DNA of 64,000 nucleotides from Dictyostelium discoideum (lineage: Eukaryota). Location: assembly GCA_000004695.1 (NCBI GenBank), contig CM000151.3:8384001-8448000 (forward strand), read 5' to 3'. A program made the translations under genes and the position numbers. Of the stretch, positions 1 to 45,519 are shown one piece after another. Numbering within the stretch: the stretch's first letter is position 1; each line of letters opens with the position of its first letter. The notes under the pieces are model-generated. The model did no database searches. It was not told the origin of the DNA and saw only the letters and a program-made list of their open reading frames with translations.

Positions 1-1404
1 GAAAATGAAATTGAAGAGTTATTATTAAAGTTTATATCAATTTCATTGATTAAAGAAAATCCTTCTTATCATTCATTGATTAGATATTCTTTAAAGAGAT
101 TTTTCATTTATTATTTAGGTATTGAAAAGAATGTTTTCCTTTCAACAGAGATGCATACAATTGGTGCTTTACAAGATGATAATCAAACTAATGGTACTCA
201 ATTGGATTTATTACCAGATGGTAGTTTAGCAAATAATGCAAATAACAATAGTTCAAATAAAGATAGAGCAATTAAAACTGCAAAGATTGCAGGTGCCGCT
301 GTAACTGGTGCTGTTTTGGTTGGTATGACTGGTGGTTTAGCTGCACCTTTTATTGGTATGATGTTAAATTTCGTTGGTGCTGGTAGTATTGTTGCTGGTA
401 TAACGGGTGCAACTGGTTTAAGTAGTGCTACAATGTTATCAGTTATTTTTGGTGCTGCTGGTGCTAAAGTCTCTGCCGGTGCTATGATTTCTGCAACTAG
501 TGGTATTAAAGATTATCAAATTCATAAGATTAAAAGTCAAACTTCATTACATGCAATCATTGGTGTCTATGGTATTTGTAATGATATGGGTGGTGTTTCA
601 GATTATTATCAAACCAAATCTGTATGGGATAGAGTCATTAGATCGGTAACCGATGATTATGGTGATATTTTCATTGTTGAATGGGAAAAGGAAGTAATGT
701 TAAAATTAAAACAATTGGTATCAGAATATCAAGGGACCATCGTTCAAGGAGTTATTAGATCCGCTGCAACCAATATTATCTCTCAATCTTTAGCATCTGC
801 ATTGGTACCATTATCAGTTTTAAAAGCTGCATCAGTTTTAGATAATCCATGGTCATTATTAAAAGATCGTTCAGAAAAGGCAGGAAAAGTATTGGCTCAA
901 CAAATTATTGATGGTTATTTTGGAAATAGACCATTGACTTTGGTTTCAACATCAATGGGATCAAGAATGGTTTTCTATGCTTTGGAGGAACTTTATAATC
1001 AGTCTTTAACTAATCCAAAAATCTATTCACTCATTGAATCGGTTGTTTTCATTGGTTCACCAATAACATCGGATCAAAAACGTTGGAGTAAAATTTTAAG
1101 ATTAATAAGTGGCCGTATGGTTAATTGTTATACACCCAATGATTTACTCTTAAAATATGTTTGTCGTTCAATCAATTGTTTATCCGATGGTATTTTACCT
1201 GCTGCTGGTGTTGCACCAATTCATATACCTGGCTCAAGTTTAGTAATTGAAAATGTTGATCTTTCAAATCTTGTTAAAAGTCATTTAGATTATGAAAAAG
1301 AAGAAATACTTTGTAAAATTTTACAACATATTGATATTAATAATATTAAATATTGTTTACCAAAAATTTCACCATTATATAGTGGTAAGGTTTATGATAT
1401 TTAA
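1..1404 (+). CDS. DUF726/TMCO4-like membrane protein (putative alpha/beta-hydrolase fold), 5'-partial
   Basis: Frame-1 reading frame is open from nt 1, so the gene starts upstream of the window; the track lists only the Met-initiated part 46..1404. Gly/Ala-rich predicted TM helices (GAAVTGAVLVGMTGGLAAPFIGMMLNFVGAGSIVAGITGATG) are followed by a hydrolase-like core with a nucleophile-elbow-like STSMGSRMVFYALEEL, as in the DUF726 family. Stop TAA at 1402-1404. Confidence 0.55.
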   Translation, partial: ENEIEELLLKFISISLIKENPSYHSLIRYSLKRFFIYYLGIEKNVFLSTEMHTIGALQDDNQTNGTQLDLLPDGSLANNANNNSSNKDRAIKTAKIAGAAVTGAVLVGMTGGLAAPFIGMMLNFVGAGSIVAGITGATGLSSATMLSVIFGAAGAKVSAGAMISATSGIKDYQIHKIKSQTSLHAIIGVYGICNDMGGVSDYYQTKSVWDRVIRSVTDDYGDIFIVEWEKEVMLKLKQLVSEYQGTIVQGVIRSAATNIISQSLASALVPLSVLKAASVLDNPWSLLKDRSEKAGKVLAQQIIDGYFGNRPLTLVSTSMGSRMVFYALEELYNQSLTNPKIYSLIESVVFIGSPITSDQKRWSKILRLISGRMVNCYTPNDLLLKYVCRSINCLSDGILPAAGVAPIHIPGSSLVIENVDLSNLVKSHLDYEKEEILCKILQHIDINNIKYCLPKISPLYSGKVYDI

Positions 1405-1797: not shown

Positions 1798-3691
1798 TTA
1801 AAAATTTAAAGAATTAATTAAATCATCGCTTGTATGATTTGGAATTGTAACTTTTAAAGATGGATCTAATTCCATTGCTCTTTTAATTGTATTTTCAGCG
1901 TTATCATTATATGACCAAGAACGACGAGCAATACCATTATTAACATCCCAATTTAACATCATTCTAGCTTTTTCTTCTTGTAATTTACTACCACATAAAT
2001 AGAGACCAAAACCACCATTGATAGCTTCACCAAAACCTGTACCACCACCATTATGAATGGCAACCCAAGTTGCACCTCTAAATGAATCACCAATAACATT
2101 ATGAATAGCCATATCAGCACAAAATTGGGAACCATCTTTAATGTTTGAAGTTTCTCTCCATGGTGCATCAGTACCAGAGACATCATGATGATCTCTACTA
2201 ATTACGACTGGAGCTGATAATGTACCATCGGCAACAGCTTTATTGAAAGCAACTGCTAATTCTGAACGACCAATACAATCACTATAAAGGATACGAGCTT
2301 GTGAACCAACAACTAATTTATGTTCACCTGCTTGACTAATCCAAAGATGATTATCATTAAATTGTTGTTGAACATTCTTTGGTACACCTGGTTGAGATCT
2401 TAATTTTTCAATTAATTCTTTGGCGATACGATCGGTGATTTCTAAATCCTTTGGATTGCCACTGGTACAAACCCAACGGAATGGACCAAAACCCAATGAA
2501 AATATATCACCCATAATATCTTGTACATAGGATGGATAAATGAATTCTTTACCATCTGTGCCTGGTTTAATAATGTCAGCTTTTGCTCTTGATGCCTCTA
2601 ATAGGAAAGAGTTACCATAATCCCAGAATTTCATACCACGTGCAGAGAGTGCATTGATTGCAGTGGTATGTCTTCTAAGGGTTTCTTGTACCATCTCTTT
2701 GAATTTAGTAGGTTCTTGAACCATGAGACGATTTGATTCTTCAAACGAACATTGTACTGGATAATAACCACCATTGAATGGATTGTGTAATGAAGTTTGA
2801 TCTGAACCTAAATCCACAGTAATATCTTTCTCTTCTACTAATTTTTCCCAAAGTGTAACGACATTACCTTGATAAGCTATTGAAAGTGGTTTCTTTTCTT
2901 TACTGCAACTCTAACCCCGAGCAAATAATTCATTTAAATCTGAATATACCTCCATAACCCAATTTTGAGCGTGTCTCTTTTTAACTGCAGCTGGACTAAC
3001 CTCTGCAACAATACAAATTGCACCACAGATGTAGGCAGCTTTAGTTTGAGCACCACTCATACCACCCAAACCTGATGAAACAAATACTTTACCAATGAGT
3101 GATTCAACACCTAAATATTTTCTACCAGCATTTAATAGAGTGATGGTTGTACCATGTACAATACCTTGTGGACCAATGTAACAATAGCTTCCAGCAGTCA
3201 TTTGACCGTATTGTGTAACACCTTGTGCATACATACGTTCATAATCTTTATGGGAGGAATAATTTGGAATCACCATACCATTGGTAACGATAACACGTGG
3301 TGAACTTTCATTTGATGGGAATAAACCCATTGGATGACCACTATACATTGTTAGGGTTTGTTGATCTGTCATCTCTGAAAGATATTTCATGGTTAAATGA
3401 TATTGTGCCCAATTTTGAAAAACACTACCATTACCACCATAGGTTACCAATTCATTTGGAAATTGTGCAACCTCTCTATCTAAATTATTCATAATCATTA
3501 ACATAATCGATGCTGCTTGTCTTGATTTTGCTGGATATTCTTCAATTGGATATGCTTTCATCTCATAATGAGTTGGTCTAAATCTATACATATAAATATG
3601 TCCATATTTATTTAATTCTTCTAAAAATTCATTTGCTAAAATTGAATGTAATGAATTTGGGAAATATCTTAATGAATTTTTAATTGCTAAC

Positions 3692-3722
<31 letters not shown>

Positions 3723-3972
3723 AGATAAATAATAATAATAATAATAACAAATTTAAAAATAAAATAAAAAAAATTAAAAATTAAAAAGCGTGTTAGTTTT
3801 TTAAAATTTTAAATATTTAATAAAAGATATTTTAAATTTTTACCTTTTTTTCGTTTAATGTTAAATTAATTGGACGACCTGGAGCATGTGGTACAGTTGA
3901 ATCTAATCCTGGGTGCTCTGGTAATGGCTCAAAAGGAATACCTTTTGATAATGATGATAATAAATCTTTCAT
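1798..3972 (-). CDS. uroc1: urocanate hydratase (urocanase), 3 exons on minus strand, interrupted by one in-frame TAG
   Basis: Minus-strand exon 1 is 3972..3844 (MKDLLSSLSKGIPFEPLPEHPGLDSTVPHAPGRPINLTLNEKK, donor GTAAAA). The 153-nt AT-rich intron 3843..3691 ends in AG. Exon 2 starts at 3690 (LAIKNSLRYFPNS...MYRFRPTHYEM...) and is colinear with bacterial HutU (GLGGMSGAQ NAD-site motif, GDSFRGATWVAIHNGGGTGFG C-terminal region) down to stop 1800..1798. The frame contains a single TAG at 2913..2911 between ...LNELFARG and SCSKEKKPLSIAYQGN...; both flanks align gaplessly to urocanase. Confidence 0.85.
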
Positions 3973-4209: not shown

Positions 4210-4248
<39 letters not shown>

Positions 4249-5300: not shown

Positions 5301-6209
5301 ATGAGATTAAGCGGTATTCTTTTATTATTATCAGCATTTGCAGGTATTATCAACTCACAATATGTTTTAGTTGAAGAGTTCCAATACCAAGGTGGCAGTT
5401 GCTCTGGTTCACAATCATCAATTGATTCACAATCATCATTCGATTCACAATCATCATGGGGTTCACAATCATCATGGGGTTCACAATCATCATGGGGTTC
5501 ACAATCATCATGGGCCTCACAATCATCATGGGGTTCATCAGATTCATCAAACTTTTTAACAGCATCTGAATCATCAGGTGAAGCATGTCCATCTTCTTCA
5601 ATTGGTGGTAATATCGTTCAAGAAGGTGTTTGCTTCTATTATGCTGATAGATTACCATCAATTTATACCGTCTCTGGTGATAACATTGTTCAAACATTTT
5701 ATAATCAAACTGATTATAATTGTGAAGGTAATTTTTTTTTTTTTTTTTTTTTTTCTCTTCATTAAACTTTAAACTAATATTTATTTTTATTTTTATTTAT
5801 TTATTATTTTAAAATAGGTAAACCAATTGATACTGTTACCGCAGTTAGTGGTGACTGTTACTCTGCATGTAACCAAGGTACTGGTATTACATTCCAATTA
5901 TCAGCAGTTGCAACTCCAGTTATTCCAACTACCAATACAATTGTAGAAGCTGTTTACACTGGTGAATGTAATGGTAATTATAAGAATTCATTCGTTTCAG
6001 TCTATTACAAATCATTAAATACTTGTAATGATAATGTTGTTGCACAACAAGGTACCTTTTCATTTGAAATCTCTTGTAACTCAACTTCATCAGCTGTTAC
6101 TATCTTTGGAAATGATGACTGTGGTGGTAGCCCAGTTTACTCTTTACACGAACCAATGGTCAACCAATGTGGTGATCAATATAATGTCATTGAAGTTTGT
6201 TACAATTAA
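5301..6209 (+). CDS. secreted Cys-rich protein with Ser-rich SQSSWG repeats (same family as 58320/59492/60919 genes), 2 exons
   Basis: Signal peptide MRLSGILLLLSAFAGIINSQ. Exon 1 is 5301..5727, ending ...YNCEG with a phase-1 donor GTAATT; the intron 5728..5817 is AT-rich; exon 2 is 5818..6209 (392 nt), beginning G|GKPIDTVTAVSGDCYSAC and ending ...NQCGDQYNVIEVCYN*. The Cys pattern (CxxxxC...EGVC...NCxG|G...ECxGxW/Y...CN...CNSTSS...C) is shared with the 58-62 kb cluster. Confidence 0.75.
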
Positions 6210-6712
6210 ATTATTGTAAAATTAATCTAAAAAATTTCAATCAAATAAAATTAATATTTAATTTATTTTATTAAACTAAATTATTATTATTATTATTTTT
6301 AATTTTTTTTTTTTTATAAAATGGTAAAACTGGAAAATTTTGGAAAAACAATTTTTTATAAAATGGTGTTTCAAACTCTACATGTAATTCATTATTAAGT
6401 AAAATCAATGTTTTTTGTATGAAATCTGTGTCATAAATAAAAATAAAAAAAAAAAGTTCAAAAAAAAAAATAAAAAAGTTGATTTTTTTTTTTTTTTTTC
6501 ATTTGATAAAATTTATTGATCACGCATAAAAGAAATGTTTTGTGTAAGAAATATATTAGATTTTTTTTTTTTTTTTGATATTTTTTCTATTAACAAAATA
6601 AAATAAAAAATATCTTTTTTTTGAAGATATTTTATGAAACACAATACTCTTTCACAATATTTTTTTTTATTTTTTTCTTTCTTTTTTAATTTACATACAC
6701 ATGCACTAAATT

Positions 6713-8199
6713 TTGAAAATGAATAAAATTATAATATTAATAATAATATTATTTTTTAAATTTATTCAAAGTCAAATAGATATTATAGAAATTAAATCAG
6801 ATAATACACTCTATATAAAAAATCCAGAAAAATCAAAATCAGATTTTTGTAGTTTCTCTTTTACGTATCTAACAATTTTCCCAGAACCTAAATTTGAAAC
6901 TGAAGGATCTATAATAGGTATTTTCGAAAATGCCCCATTTACTCAATTATATTTACTAGCAAATGATACATGTTCTCTTAATGAATATATTATTCCAAAG
7001 ATTACTTTTGGTAATTATGTTTTTTCTGTAAAATCAAACTCAACATCAGGTGAAAAATTTTTATCTACTTATTTTTCATGTGAACGTATGTGTATTAATA
7101 ATTATTAAATAAAATAAATAAATAAATTAATAAATATTTTATTAAAATAAAATGTTTACTCTTTTTTATAGCAATTGATGTTTCAAAATTAAAATTTTCA
7201 TTTACCCCATATCCAATATCTCTAAGACATACACCTTATCAAAAGGGTGTTTTGAGAATTGTTGGATTAAATAGCTCATGCTCTTTAGAAAGTATACCTT
7301 ATTATCAATTACAAGATACTGGATTTGGTTATTATTATATACCAAACTTTAATGATTTTTCTTTGAATGATGAAAATGCAACTTTTCTTTTTTTTAATTC
7401 AAGTTATACAATGACAATTCCAACAATTTATAAAAGTAATTATACTATTTTTAATAAATCTTGTAAAAAAAAAAAAAAAAATAATAATAATTATTTATTT
7501 TTAGATTATAGTAATATTATTGGTGAAATAAAACCATATCCAAATAAGGATAATGTAATTAAATTAGGAAAGTATCAAGGCCCATTCTTTACATTTCAAA
7601 CTTATTTTAGTTCAGATGATACTCCATATTTTATAATAAAACCAGATTTTTCTCCTCCAGTTTTATTATATGGATCAGAGATAAATAATAGTTACACATA
7701 TGCAAATACTCAATCATTTGGTAATTTCAATGCATCTTTATACTCTCAAAAATTTAGTGAAGTAGTAAATGTTTATAATTTTCTTAAAAATGTTAAACGT
7801 GAGTATTGTTTAATTAAAAAAAAAAAAAAAAATAATAATAAAAAATTAATTATATTTTTTTATTTTTATTATTTTAGAATATAATTTGAGTGTTATGCCT
7901 TCAAGTGCAGATATATCATATAAAAATATTGGTAATTTTTCATTATTTACTATTGAAATTACAAATTCAGACCATTATGATTTCAGTAAATATGTTTATA
8001 TGATTAATTCATTTAGCTCTCCTTTATTGCAATGGCCTTATGGTTTTCTTAGTGGAAATAATAATAAGTATAATTTTCAAATAAGAGGTTTCAACTTACC
8101 CATACCAATGACTCAAACTTCTTCTTTTGTCAATATTAATTTTTTAAATAGTAACGGTATAACCCTTGGTATAAATTATAATACTATTGGTATGTGTTT

Positions 8200-38538: not shown

Positions 38539-39350
38539 ATGAGTTATCCAAACCAACAACAAGAACAAAGTGGTTATCCACAACAACAACAACAGGGTTA
38601 TCCACAACAAAATCAGGGTGGTTATCCACAACAACAACAACAACAACATCAAAGGGGTGGATATCCACAACAAGGATACCCACAACAACCACAGGGTTAT
38701 CCACAACAAAATCAAGGTGGATATCCACAACAACCACAAACACAACAATATAACCCATATAGTCAACAAACATCACCACCTACAACTACAAATTCAGCAC
38801 CACCAACTACAAATTCAGCACCATTAAACCCATCTGTACAACAAACATCACCACCACAATCAATGACTAATAATACTGGAGTATATTCACAACCACCACC
38901 AACTAATCAACAACAATCACCATCAAAATCACAACCAATCAATAATAATAATATGGGAGGATATCCTCAACAATCATCACAATCATCACCACCACCAACA
39001 TCACAACAACAACAATATCAAGGTGGTTATCCACAACAAACAGGTTATTCTCAACAACCACAAACAAATTCATTATCATCACCAACCCAACCACCACCAC
39101 CAATCACAAATAATACATCAGCACCACCACAACCAACAGGTTATTCTCAACCACCACCAATGACAAATAATACAGGTTATCAACAAACTACAAATACTTC
39201 ACAACCACCAATGAACAATTATCAACAATACTCACCAAATCAACCAAGCGGTGGTAATATGTATCAACAACCACAATCACAACAATCACAACAACCACAA
39301 CAACCACAACAATATCAATATAATCAACAACCACCACAACAACCATATGG

Positions 39351-39408
<58 letters not shown>

Positions 39409-42036
39409 CCACCACAACAACCATATGGACAACAACCACAACAACAACAACAATGGAATAGTAATCCAGTACCAGGTTTACAAAATTTATCACTTGGACC
39501 AAATAACCAACAACCACAACAACAATATGGACAACCACAACAACAACAATATGGGCAACCACCATTCGTTGGACAACAACAACAACAACAACAACAACCA
39601 TGGCAACCACAACAACCACAACAACAACCAAATCAACAACAAATTGAGGATAATAGAATTAATATGTCAAAAGTGCCAAGCCCAACAGCAATTTTAGAAC
39701 AATTTAATAATTATATTTATAAGACCAATTCAGATGTGTCACCACCACCATCAACAGTTCAACAATTAGTGATTGATCAACAAAATGCATCACCAAATTT
39801 CATTCGTTCAACATTGTATACCATTCCAGAGAATGAGGATACTCTTAATCTAATTCATATTCCATTTGCAATTCATGTTCAACCATTGGCATACAATGGT
39901 ATTTCAGGTGAGGTACCAGTGATTCGTACACCAGGTGGACCAATTCAATGTAAACGTTGTCACAGTTATATCAATCCATTCAATCCATTCACCAATGGTG
40001 GTAAATATTTTACTTGTCGTTTCTGTGAATTTGAAAATCAAGTACCACAAGAATACTTTAGTGCCACGCTTCCAAATGGTCAACGTACCGATTACGAACA
40101 AAGACCTGAACTTCAAAGGGGTTCCTACGATTTCATAAAGACTGAAGCAAATGCAGCTCAAGTACCGGGTTATGTTTTCGTGATTGAAATTTCACAAGTT
40201 ACCATCAATAGTGGTATCGTCGAGAATGTAATCAATGCCATCAGAAGAATTCTCAATGAAAGATATGATAGTATACCAGCCAAAGTTGGTATCATCACCT
40301 ACGATACAGAGGTTCACTTTTGGTCATTCAAACCAACCTATGCCTATCCACAAATGAAAGTATTGACAGCTGACAATGTTTTCGTACCAGTTAATGACGG
40401 TTTCCTCGTGGATTATCGTGAGTCTAAACAATTGATGGATTTCTTTTTCGATAATTTCAAAACCTTCTTCAAACGTCCACAACCATCGAATCAACCATTT
40501 GCATTTGGTGCCGCTGTTCAAGCCGCTGCAATGTCATTGGAAAAGATTGGTGGTAGAGTTTTCACATTCAATACTACCCTTCCAAAAGGTTCACCTGGTG
40601 CTATCGCTAAACGTGTCGAAAAATCAATTCAACCATCACCAAACGGTTCACAATTCTATAAGACGGTAGCAACTGAATGTGTTGCAAAGAATGTTTCAGT
40701 GGATCTCTTTGTAATTCCAACAGAGATTTGTGATGTACCATCCTATGCTCAATTGGCAACCGCTACTGGTGGTCATATCAATCTCTACAATAATTACTCG
40801 GCCGAAGTTCACTCTGAATTACTCACAAGTGATATCATTCATTATGTTACAATGGAATTTGGTTTCAACGCAACCTCTAAAGTTAGATCCTCTAGAGGTA
40901 TCACTGTTTCTGCTCATTATGGTAATATCACTGAAGAGAATGGTCTCATTCAAATGGCTGGCGTGACCTCTGATAAATCAATTACATCAGTATTAAAATA
41001 TGATGATAAATTAAAACCAAAATCAAAAGCTTATATTCAATTTGCAATGATGTAAGTTTTTATTAAATTATTTAAATAATAATTATTATATATATATAAA
41101 ATATATTATAATATTTATAATTAACTATTTTATTTTATTTTATTTAGATATACAAATATTAAAGGTGAAACTAGAATTAGAATTCATAATTTAAGATTAT
41201 CAGTTGATTCAGTTTTAACAAATTTATTTAAAGATTCAGATTTAGATTCAATTACAACCTATTTTGCAAGAGTAGCAAGTAAAGAGGTATTGACAACTAC
41301 ACCAACTACAGTTCGTTCAAATACAGTTGATAAAGGTGTTGATTTATTAGCATCCTATAGAAAGAATTGTGCATCCGATAAGAAGGCAACTCAATTGATC
41401 TTACCAGAGGGTATTAAATTGATGCCAATCTATATATTGTCAATGATGAAAACACCATGTTTCCGTCTTTCACCAGATATCAGTCAAGATTTGCGTTATT
41501 TCTATTTGAATTTATACACTTCATCAGCACCTTCAAGAATTATACCATTGATTTATCCACGTACCTATCCAATTCATAATTTATTACCTGGCGATGGTTA
41601 TAAACATCCAAACTATGATCACATTGTATTACCATCATTCATTAGATTATCGGCCGATCAAATCTCTCAAAATGGTATTTACATTCATGAAGATGGTAGA
41701 CAAATTATGGTTTGGATTCAACAATTTGCTGCTACCAATTATCTTCGTGATCTTTTCGGTATCGAGAGTACCTTTGGTTATACCAATAGTAAATTATCAC
41801 AACTCTATCATTCTTTAAATGGTCAAAACGAATATCATCAACGTATTGAAGCTATCATCGCTTCAATCACTCAACTTCGTGGTTACAAAGATAGACCTGT
41901 CATTTTCGTCGTTCAAGGTGATCCTGTTGATGCTCATCTTAGATTACAATTCCATGAAGACAAAGGTGTTGATTCTGTCTCTTACATTGATTTCCTTTGT
42001 CAAATTCATAAACAAATTCAAAATAAATTATCGTAA
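38539..42036 (+). CDS. sec24: COPII coat subunit Sec24, 2 exons
   Basis: Exon 1 is 38539..41051 with an N-terminal GYPQQ/Pro-Gln-rich low-complexity region of about 380 aa, the Sec23/24 zinc finger CKRCHSYINPFNPF...CRFCEFEN and the trunk domain. Intron 41052..41147 is GTAAGT...AG in phase 2. Exon 2 is 41148..42036 (..FAM|IYTNIKGETRIRIHNL.., helical and gelsolin-like regions). Confidence 0.85.
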
Positions 42037-42128: not shown

Positions 42129-43031
42129 TTAAAAAAAAAAAAAATAATAAAAAAAAATTAAATTACAAACTATAAATAAAAAAAGAGATCAACCAAAAAA
42201 AAAAAAAAAGTAATAATTAAAATCTTTTAAAAATAGAATGTAATGTATTAATAGTTTTTTTTTTTTTTTATTTATTTTTTATTTTTATGTTATTATTTTC
42301 TAAAAAAAAAAAAAAAAAAAAAAATTAGGCAAAATGATTATCAACAAACAGCTGCTGCTCTTTTGATGGCAAATACTTATTAGGAAAAAAAAAAAAAATA
42401 AAAAAATAAAAAAAAATAAAAATAAAAACCAATACTAAAATAAAAAAAATAAAATAAAATAAAAAATAAAAAGATCATTTTTTTGATCATTTCTTTTATT
42501 ATAAACACAATGAAAAAATTGCCCGCCAATCATTTTTTGATCTTTTTTTTAAATTTTTTTTTTTTATTTTTTTTTTTTTTTAAAAAAAAAGAACTGTTTT
42601 TTTTTTTTATTTTGAATTGTTAAATTAATTTTACAAAAAAACAAAAAAAAAAAATAAAATAATATAAAAACAATCGTTCTTTTTTTTTTTTTTTTTTTAT
42701 TTTCACGCTGTATACAACATAAATAATAATAAAACATAGCAATAACATCTAGCATTTTTTTTTTTTTTTATCTTTCCAATTTTATGTTAGACTCCAACCC
42801 CCACATCACAAGGTGAGTACCAGATTTTGAAAATACAAAAAAATAAAAATAAAAAAAAAAAATAATAAAAAAAAAAATAACAACCCAATTATTTTTTTTT
42901 TTTTTTTCTAATCCATATTAATATCATATTTAAAATAATAAAAAAAAAATACAATTAGTAATTAGTTTAAAGGAAAAAAAAAGAATTATTTTTGTTTTTG
43001 GTTTTTTTTTTTCTTTTTTTTTTTTGGGAAA

Positions 43032-45425: not shown

Positions 45426-45519
45426 TGATAATAATATAACAATAAACTTTATTTTATTTGAATTATTTTTAAAAAAAAAAAAAAAAATGAAAAATGATAA
45501 TAATAAATTTAAAATTATT

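Follow-up and report, generated by a model that had tools for sequence, protein, structure and literature searches.

An apparent stop codon in the urocanase gene of Dictyostelium discoideum AX4 marks a compensated frameshift and a probable reference error

The urocanase gene of Dictyostelium discoideum AX4 is interrupted in the reference sequence by a single in-frame TAG, which raises the question of whether the codon reflects a biological event, such as recoding or loss of the gene, or a fault in the sequence as recorded. The window, by which we mean the whole stretch of 64,000 nucleotides that was analysed, corresponds to chr2:8,384,001-8,448,000 of AX4, approximately 97 kb from the right end of chromosome 2, a placement that follows from the exact fit of a curated tiny-intron coordinate described below. 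The gene, a homolog of uroc1/HutU, lies on the minus strand and comprises exon 1 (3844..3972; 43 codons, with the ATG at 3972..3970), one genuine intron (3691..3843; 153 nt) and exon 2 (1798..3690; 631 codons, the last being the TAA at 1800..1798), which holds the apparent stop. The intron, the only genuine one in the gene, runs from GTAAAAAT to TTTTTTTTAG, is bounded by GT and AG, and has a GC content of 6.5%. An initial annotation, made from the sequence alone, had placed the TAG at 2913..2911 in exon 2 (3690..1798), between 259 and 370 sense codons in the same frame, and we reproduced both the position and the counts. Its remark that the surrounding DNA has the composition of coding sequence was also borne out, the GC content being 31% for 2913..2818 as compared with 34% for exon 2 and 6.5% for the intron.

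Judged by its domain content and its colinearity with solved structures, the gene can be classed as an ordinary long-form urocanase (HutU/UROC1). The domains PF17391, PF01175 and PF17392 (Urocanase_N, the Rossmann-like domain of urocanase and Urocanase_C) are present in the 90%-identity cluster of the AX4 model and in all top matches. Enzymes of this family convert urocanate to 4-imidazolone-5-propionate and carry NAD+ in tightly bound form; the glycine-rich GLGGMSGAQ stretch is found in the urocanase sequence of the window. When the protein was corrected as described below, residues 1-669 aligned with the solved Trypanosoma cruzi urocanase 6UEK_A (E=2e-291), and matches to the structures 1UWK, 1X87 and 2FKN were obtained with E values around 1e-90. 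A literature search returned nothing specific on a Dictyostelium urocanase. The exon 1-exon 2 junction was verified by translation: the spliced product of the window is identical to P0122 when the TAG is removed, and to P0127 when three edits are made. P0122 is the AX4 urocanate hydratase of 672 aa (XP_642464.2/EAL68537.2/Q86AX3.2), and its match to the translation without the TAG is exact.

The genes on either side were also noted (46..1404 of the window, plus strand, and 5569..8175 of the L008 contig introduced below). The adjoining gene runs off the start of the window and is annotated in the AX2-type assembly as a 1135-aa protein with VPS9 and DUF726 domains; on the other side, upstream of urocanase, lies a 1349-aa ComC-like gene (DUF7035/DUF7034/ComC_SSD). 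Both neighbours appear to be free of reference discrepancies in the compared stretch.

A cluster of three lesions around the TAG

The DNA of the window was compared with contig L008 of the assembly GCA_054883475.1 and with seven contigs (L001-L007) from public runs of two accession series, all of them derived from outside the AX3/AX4 lineage. At the site the minus strand of the window reads GAA TTA TTT GCT CGG GGT TAG AGT TGC AGT AAA GAA AAG AAA, and the portion given there as GCT CGG GGT TAG AGT TGC AGT AAA is GCT CGT GTT AGA GTT GCA GTT AAA (A R V R V A V K) in the other sequences. Expressed as 25-mers, the reference version of the site is GCTCGGGGTTAGAGTTGCAGTAAAG and the intact version GCTCGTGTTAGAGTTGCAGTTAAAG; L008 and the seven contigs, which come from a different strain, all carry the latter. 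The alignment to L008 and L001-L007 resolves the discrepancy into three lesions on the minus strand. A GGGG run at 2915..2918 occupies the place of GTG, which corresponds to a T>G substitution and an extra G (+1), and G-T at 2902..2903 occupies the place of G-TT, one T being missing beside T2902 (-1), so that the frame is restored. The 13 bases that separate the +1 and -1 lesions are the same in the window and in the other sequences, and all three lesions fall inside 17 bases (2918..2902).

Because the +1 and -1 changes cancel, both halves of the gene appear in one frame, and the error is confined to five mis-framed codons (2902..2916, minus strand), GGT TAG AGT TGC AGT (G * S C S) being read in place of GTT AGA GTT GCA GTT (V R V A V, residues 302-306). 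The apparent stop at 2911..2913 is made up, in the true frame, of the end of GTT (Val302) and the start of AGA (Arg303). When the three edits were applied to the window, the encoded protein became 100% identical to P0127 over all 673 residues. Outside 2918..2902 the coding sequence is that of L008, with no added stops, frameshifts or radical substitutions, and across the 2.4-kb gene region L008 differs from the window only in the length of an upstream poly-T tract and in the cluster itself. The description of the locus in the initial annotation as a single TAG in an otherwise intact gene was therefore correct with regard to the open frames on both sides, but not with regard to the site, where five consecutive codons (2916..2902) are aberrant. 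It had missed the compensated frameshift over these codons, the cause being other than a nonsense substitution; its view that the gene is not an old pseudogene is correct.

The gapless alignment around the site that had been claimed for bacterial urocanases was obtained with eukaryotic and bacterial enzymes alike. The other members of the urocanase cluster read ...ELFARVRVA(V/I)KEKKPLSIAYQGN... at the site, and the window reads ...ELFARG*SCSKEKKPLSIAYQGN...; a sense codon had rightly been expected at the position of the TAG, and V R V A V/I stands there in every relative. The pattern R-[VIL]-[KR]-x-A is found at the site in dictyostelids including D. purpureum, and in Physarum, Balamuthia, coral, fish and Bacteroidota, and the corresponding residues of 6UEK are RRVRAAS. 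The shifted reading of the window fits this pattern perfectly, but the in-frame reading does not. Shifting the reading of the window by one base yields the conserved VRVA exactly, a result that readthrough cannot produce and that counts against a simple nonsense mutation. Of the four explanations offered by the initial annotation, a sequencing or assembly error is the one supported here, readthrough is excluded, and a simple nonsense mutation is argued against. By alignment, the TAG is read as a frame slip produced by compensated +1/-1 indels together with a substitution, and not as a point nonsense change.

These data bear directly on programmed recoding, in which the UAG would be read through or bypassed by frameshifting to give full-length urocanase. 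The TAG is indeed flanked by long open frames, as such a mechanism would have it; however, no other strain or species compared has a stop here, so that no relative needs recoding, and the recoded product would retain G-X-S-C-S, in which the in-frame G, S, C and S mismatch conserved residues while the one-base shift gives V R V A. We consider recoding to be exceedingly improbable.

We give the same negligible weight to the idea that the TAG lies inside a small, unrecognised spliceosomal intron. The initial annotation had stated that no GT..AG pair would restore the frame, which proved to be incorrect, since 143 GT..AG pairs within 3100..2700 remove the TAG and leave the frame open and free of stops, although none of these deletions is biologically plausible. 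The curated model, moreover, formally carries an intron of 3 bp. Against an intron, every deletion of realistic length would cut out positions whose conservation and colinearity extend to all homologs, 6UEK among them, and the region, at 31% GC, resembles an exon rather than the real intron (6.5%). A 3-bp intron is unspliceable (Singh et al. 2017), and the coding DNA of relatives is continuous at this point. Continuous coding DNA in relatives, taken together with the loss of conserved, colinear residues, excludes an intron at the site.

Comparison with other strains and laboratory lineages

The comparison with other strains and Dictyostelium species that the initial annotation had proposed returned sense codons at the site and no stop. 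The intact sequence is present in the AX2-type assembly and in four more assemblies assigned to D. discoideum or cf. discoideum, as well as in D. citrinum, D. dimigraforme and D. firmibasis, and a stop at this position was absent from all orthologs and other strains compared. Orthologs in the cluster are 673 aa long, apart from that of D. firmibasis (672 aa) and a read-assembly product of 597 aa. A natural nonsense allele segregating in wild D. discoideum has nothing in its favour beyond the reference itself, and the gene is intact in all five other D. discoideum/cf. discoideum assemblies and in the strain represented by the seven public runs; such a polymorphism is thus very improbable in our estimation.

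L001-L007 are Logan contigs (runs SRR26869256-66 and SRR28564540-43) from a D. discoideum strain other than AX4 and AX2. This strain differs from the window by four SNPs in 2 kb; relative to both AX4 and AX2, three of them are synonymous (2140, 1858 and 1828) and one lies in the intron (3710), and its urocanase protein is the same as the corrected AX4 protein. The cluster contains three D. discoideum proteins, of which P0127 equals the corrected AX4 protein and P0121 and P0125 share five substitutions relative to AX4. The latter two, from tropical isolates (ACTFIW and ACTFIR, respectively), have S513C and C515W in common, at window codons around 2280..2272, and read ARILYCDWIGR in the otherwise invariant ARILYSDC(I/V/L)GR. 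Two radical changes two residues apart are unusual, and they could represent either real variation of the lineage or a shared assembly problem.

The assembly GCA_054883475.1, whose locus-tag prefix is ACTFIT (JBTAPE01), belongs to PRJNA1300491, a project in which AX2-214 and wild isolates were sequenced with Nanopore and Illumina reads (Holland et al. 2025, PMC12745789). In that study only AX2-214, CR116C and OT3A are still designated D. discoideum, the latter two being diverged from AX4, and AX2 and AX4 are reported to be 99.5% identical. We found 99.6% identity between the assembly and the window over 7 kb and 22.4 kb (approximately 29 kb in all), with almost all differences residing in homopolymer lengths. 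By elimination and by this level of identity, the L008 and L009 contigs most likely derive from AX2-214. AX2 and AX3/AX4 are separate derivatives of NC4 (PMC12745789), and so the intact gene of the AX2-type assembly indicates that the gene was also intact in the NC4 ancestor.

Elsewhere in the window, too, the AX4 reference departs from the probable AX2-214 sequence. Four substitutions lie within 100 bp of each other at 38595, 38616, 38655 and 38694, in an ORF on the plus strand (38539..41055). In each of them the base directly 5' of a GG is G in the reference and A or T in the other assembly; three are CAAGGT>CAGGGT and one is AGTGGT>AGGGGT (Ser>Arg), a copying of the neighbouring base like that of GTG>GGGG in urocanase. 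Either faulty Sanger base calling in the chromosome 2 reference or an artefact of polishing in a Q/G-rich repeat of the new assembly could have given rise to this pattern. Further single-base differences were noted at 42429, 47105, 37606, 42709, 33479 and 37965, several of which again duplicate a neighbour (A>C before C, C>T before T, T>G after G). In addition, poly-A and poly-T tracts between genes differ in length in a consistent direction, the AX4 reference exceeding the Nanopore/Illumina assembly by as much as 39 nt (37957, 39 nt; 36138, 13 nt; 4216-4224, 9 nt; 55360, 8 nt; and other homopolymers), which could reflect either real microsatellite instability or collapse of homopolymers in long reads.

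The AX4 reference and the probable AX2 sequence are separated by 10 substitutions in 22.4 kb. This number far exceeds what the published mutation rate would allow between NC4 derivatives, and most of the differences are therefore probably technical. The neighbour-copy changes in the window hint at a systematic technical signature.

The curated tiny intron and the origin of the lesions

The coding sequence of the AX4 RefSeq/UniProt entry jumps only the TAG, with a gap of 3 bp, which is less than 5 bp and too short for a spliceosomal intron. Gaps of this kind have been catalogued. Singh et al. (2017; BMC Genomics 18:120, PMC5282741) went through every gene model of D. discoideum and listed 119 "introns" of less than 5 bp in 102 genes, all 119 of which were sourced to "dictyBase Curator". 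They regarded these tiny introns as bridges placed by annotators over errors in the genome sequence, pointed out that splicing of a 3-bp intron is impossible, and concluded that, arguably, not a single one of the 119 is a genuine intron. Two of their cases were settled with RNA-seq: in clcD a base missing from the reference was present in 22 of 23 reads, and in DDB_G0279477 the reference TAA was TTA in 100% of 56 and 33 reads (PMC5282741). Table S1 of the same paper contains a chromosome 2 entry for a dictyBase Curator tiny intron at 8386910..8386914 on the minus strand (Parent=DDB0234152, Length=3). Its 3-bp gap (8,386,911-8,386,913) falls exactly on the TAG (window 2911-2913), and among the 14 3-bp entries for chromosome 2 it is the only one that gives the window start of 8,384,001 (131 x 64,000 + 1). 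The TAG site is, then, an already catalogued dictyBase tiny-intron patch. Another entry, the tiny intron at chr2:5,509,740, to which the coordinate on the AX2 contig and the AX4 duplication had pointed, was tried as a candidate for this site and rejected, since the 2-bp tiny intron that it predicts at 45,466-45,467 of the window falls in AT-rich intergenic DNA.

We conclude that the TAG very probably arose from faulty base calling in the chromosome 2 reference of D. discoideum AX4, and we infer that the sequence is intact in AX4 cells themselves. The AX4 reference sequence dates from 2002-2005. In the proposed sequence of events, local base-calling errors would have caused GTG to be recorded as GGGG and, 13 bases downstream, TT to be recorded as T. 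The +1 and -1 errors would cancel each other, the five codons between them would be misread, and GT-TAG-A would show as a stop, while the true gene would encode a normal urocanase of 673 aa with Val-Arg-Val-Ala-Val at residues 302-306. The dictyBase curators, unable to edit the chromosome sequence, stepped over the stop by means of a 3-bp "intron" that could never be spliced, and this gave rise to the RefSeq/UniProt protein of 672 aa (...ARG-SCSKEKK...), in which four residues are wrong and one is missing. Because the error is a compensated frameshift, skipping 3 bp restores the length approximately but leaves the four residues wrong (GSCS for VRVAV).

The expected frequency of such errors can be gauged from the work of Saxer et al. 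(2012), who re-sequenced three AX4 mutation-accumulation lines, with approximately 11.5 Mb callable per genome, and counted 1,917 single-base departures from the reference, of which 1,916 were common between lines, the mutation rate being 2.9e-11 per site per generation. These figures correspond to a reference discrepancy rate of about 1.7e-4 per bp. Set against a rate of 2.9e-11, such a frequency means that discrepancies of the reference exceed plausible real mutations in the lineage well over ten-fold per site. Three frame-cancelling lesions in 17 bases resemble a low-quality Sanger stretch much more than they resemble mutation.

The main alternative is that the lesion is real but confined to the AX3/AX4 lineage, where a complex mutation (T>GG with deletion of a T 13 bases away) would have truncated urocanase at residue 302. 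The reference does read this way, and all of the compared sequences come from outside AX3/AX4; because AX2 and AX4 were derived from NC4 independently, an intact gene in AX2 is no proof of one in AX4. In rich axenic medium, cells could plausibly do without histidine catabolism. Nevertheless, this explanation needs three separate lesions that restore the frame within 17 bases and nothing else in 2.4 kb, and the comparison of 2.9e-11 mutations per site per generation with about 1.7e-4 discrepancies per bp in re-sequenced AX4 weighs against it. Tiny-intron sites elsewhere proved to be errors of the reference when examined by RNA-seq, and the similar neighbour-copy differences between AX4 and AX2 in the window suggest a technical signature. 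We therefore judge a private AX3/AX4 lesion to be unlikely. That the AX4 reference strain would be a natural urocanase knockout owing to a real three-lesion cluster, with AX2 being wild type, is if anything a shade less likely. If it were so, AX4 would be blocked in histidine catabolism and would be likely to accumulate urocanate, and a hidden metabolic difference would exist between the two most used laboratory lineages. All explanations other than reference error and a private AX3/AX4 lesion carry very little probability even when they are taken together, and nothing suggests recoding, unusual splicing or recent pseudogenisation at the urocanase site.

Several searches had negative outcomes. 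No hairpin that would account for Sanger compression was predicted at the site beyond the level of shuffled controls. None of the truncated products derived from the TAG (226, 302, 339 and 308 aa) was found by exact look-up in a collection of 15 billion proteins; the indexed D. discoideum read contigs behind this look-up comprise only two run series from one non-NC4 strain, and because these reads exclude the AX4 lineage, the missing products are weak evidence and uninformative alone. A query with 160 aa of protein centred on the site retrieved no read-assembly fragments from D. discoideum, its matches being distant homologs of at most 69% identity, and a scan of JGI metagenome contigs with a pattern for the intact and the reference form of the site was negative.

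The corrected protein and its relation to known systems

The value of the finding is practical only and lies in a specific correction to a reference protein: the true product of the gene represented by XP_642464.2/Q86AX3.2 (672 aa, ...ARG-SCSKEKK...) is almost certainly 673 aa long and reads ...ARVRVAVKEKK..., with residues 302-306 corrected. The case illustrates that a curated "tiny intron" can mask a compensated frameshift, and that skipping the stop leaves wrong residues in the protein. In-frame stops in the AX4 reference, particularly on chromosome 2, should thus be compared with the newer assemblies of AX2 and wild isolates before recoding or pseudogenisation is claimed.

The urocanase site is similar to the dictyBase tiny introns of DDB_G0279477 and clcD in that independent sequence contradicts the reference. 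In those two genes one substitution or one missing base accounts for the error, whereas in urocanase it is a compensated +1/-1 pair with a substitution; within the tiny-intron set of Singh et al. (2017), the urocanase site is tabulated only, without individual analysis. With premature-stop alleles and unitary pseudogenes of laboratory strains the site shares an in-frame stop in a conserved gene of a long-cultured strain. A real nonsense allele, however, normally arises by one substitution and is reproduced upon re-sequencing, while the urocanase stop involves two cancelling indels and is absent from the sister lineage. Among urocanate hydratases (HutU/UROC1; e.g. 6UEK and 1UWK), the corrected Dictyostelium protein is full-length and colinear, with identities of 97% to D. 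citrinum, 85% to D. purpureum and approximately 63-65% to the long-form urocanases of animals and bacteria, and it shows no notable difference from the long (about 670 aa) urocanases of the eukaryote/Bacteroidota type.
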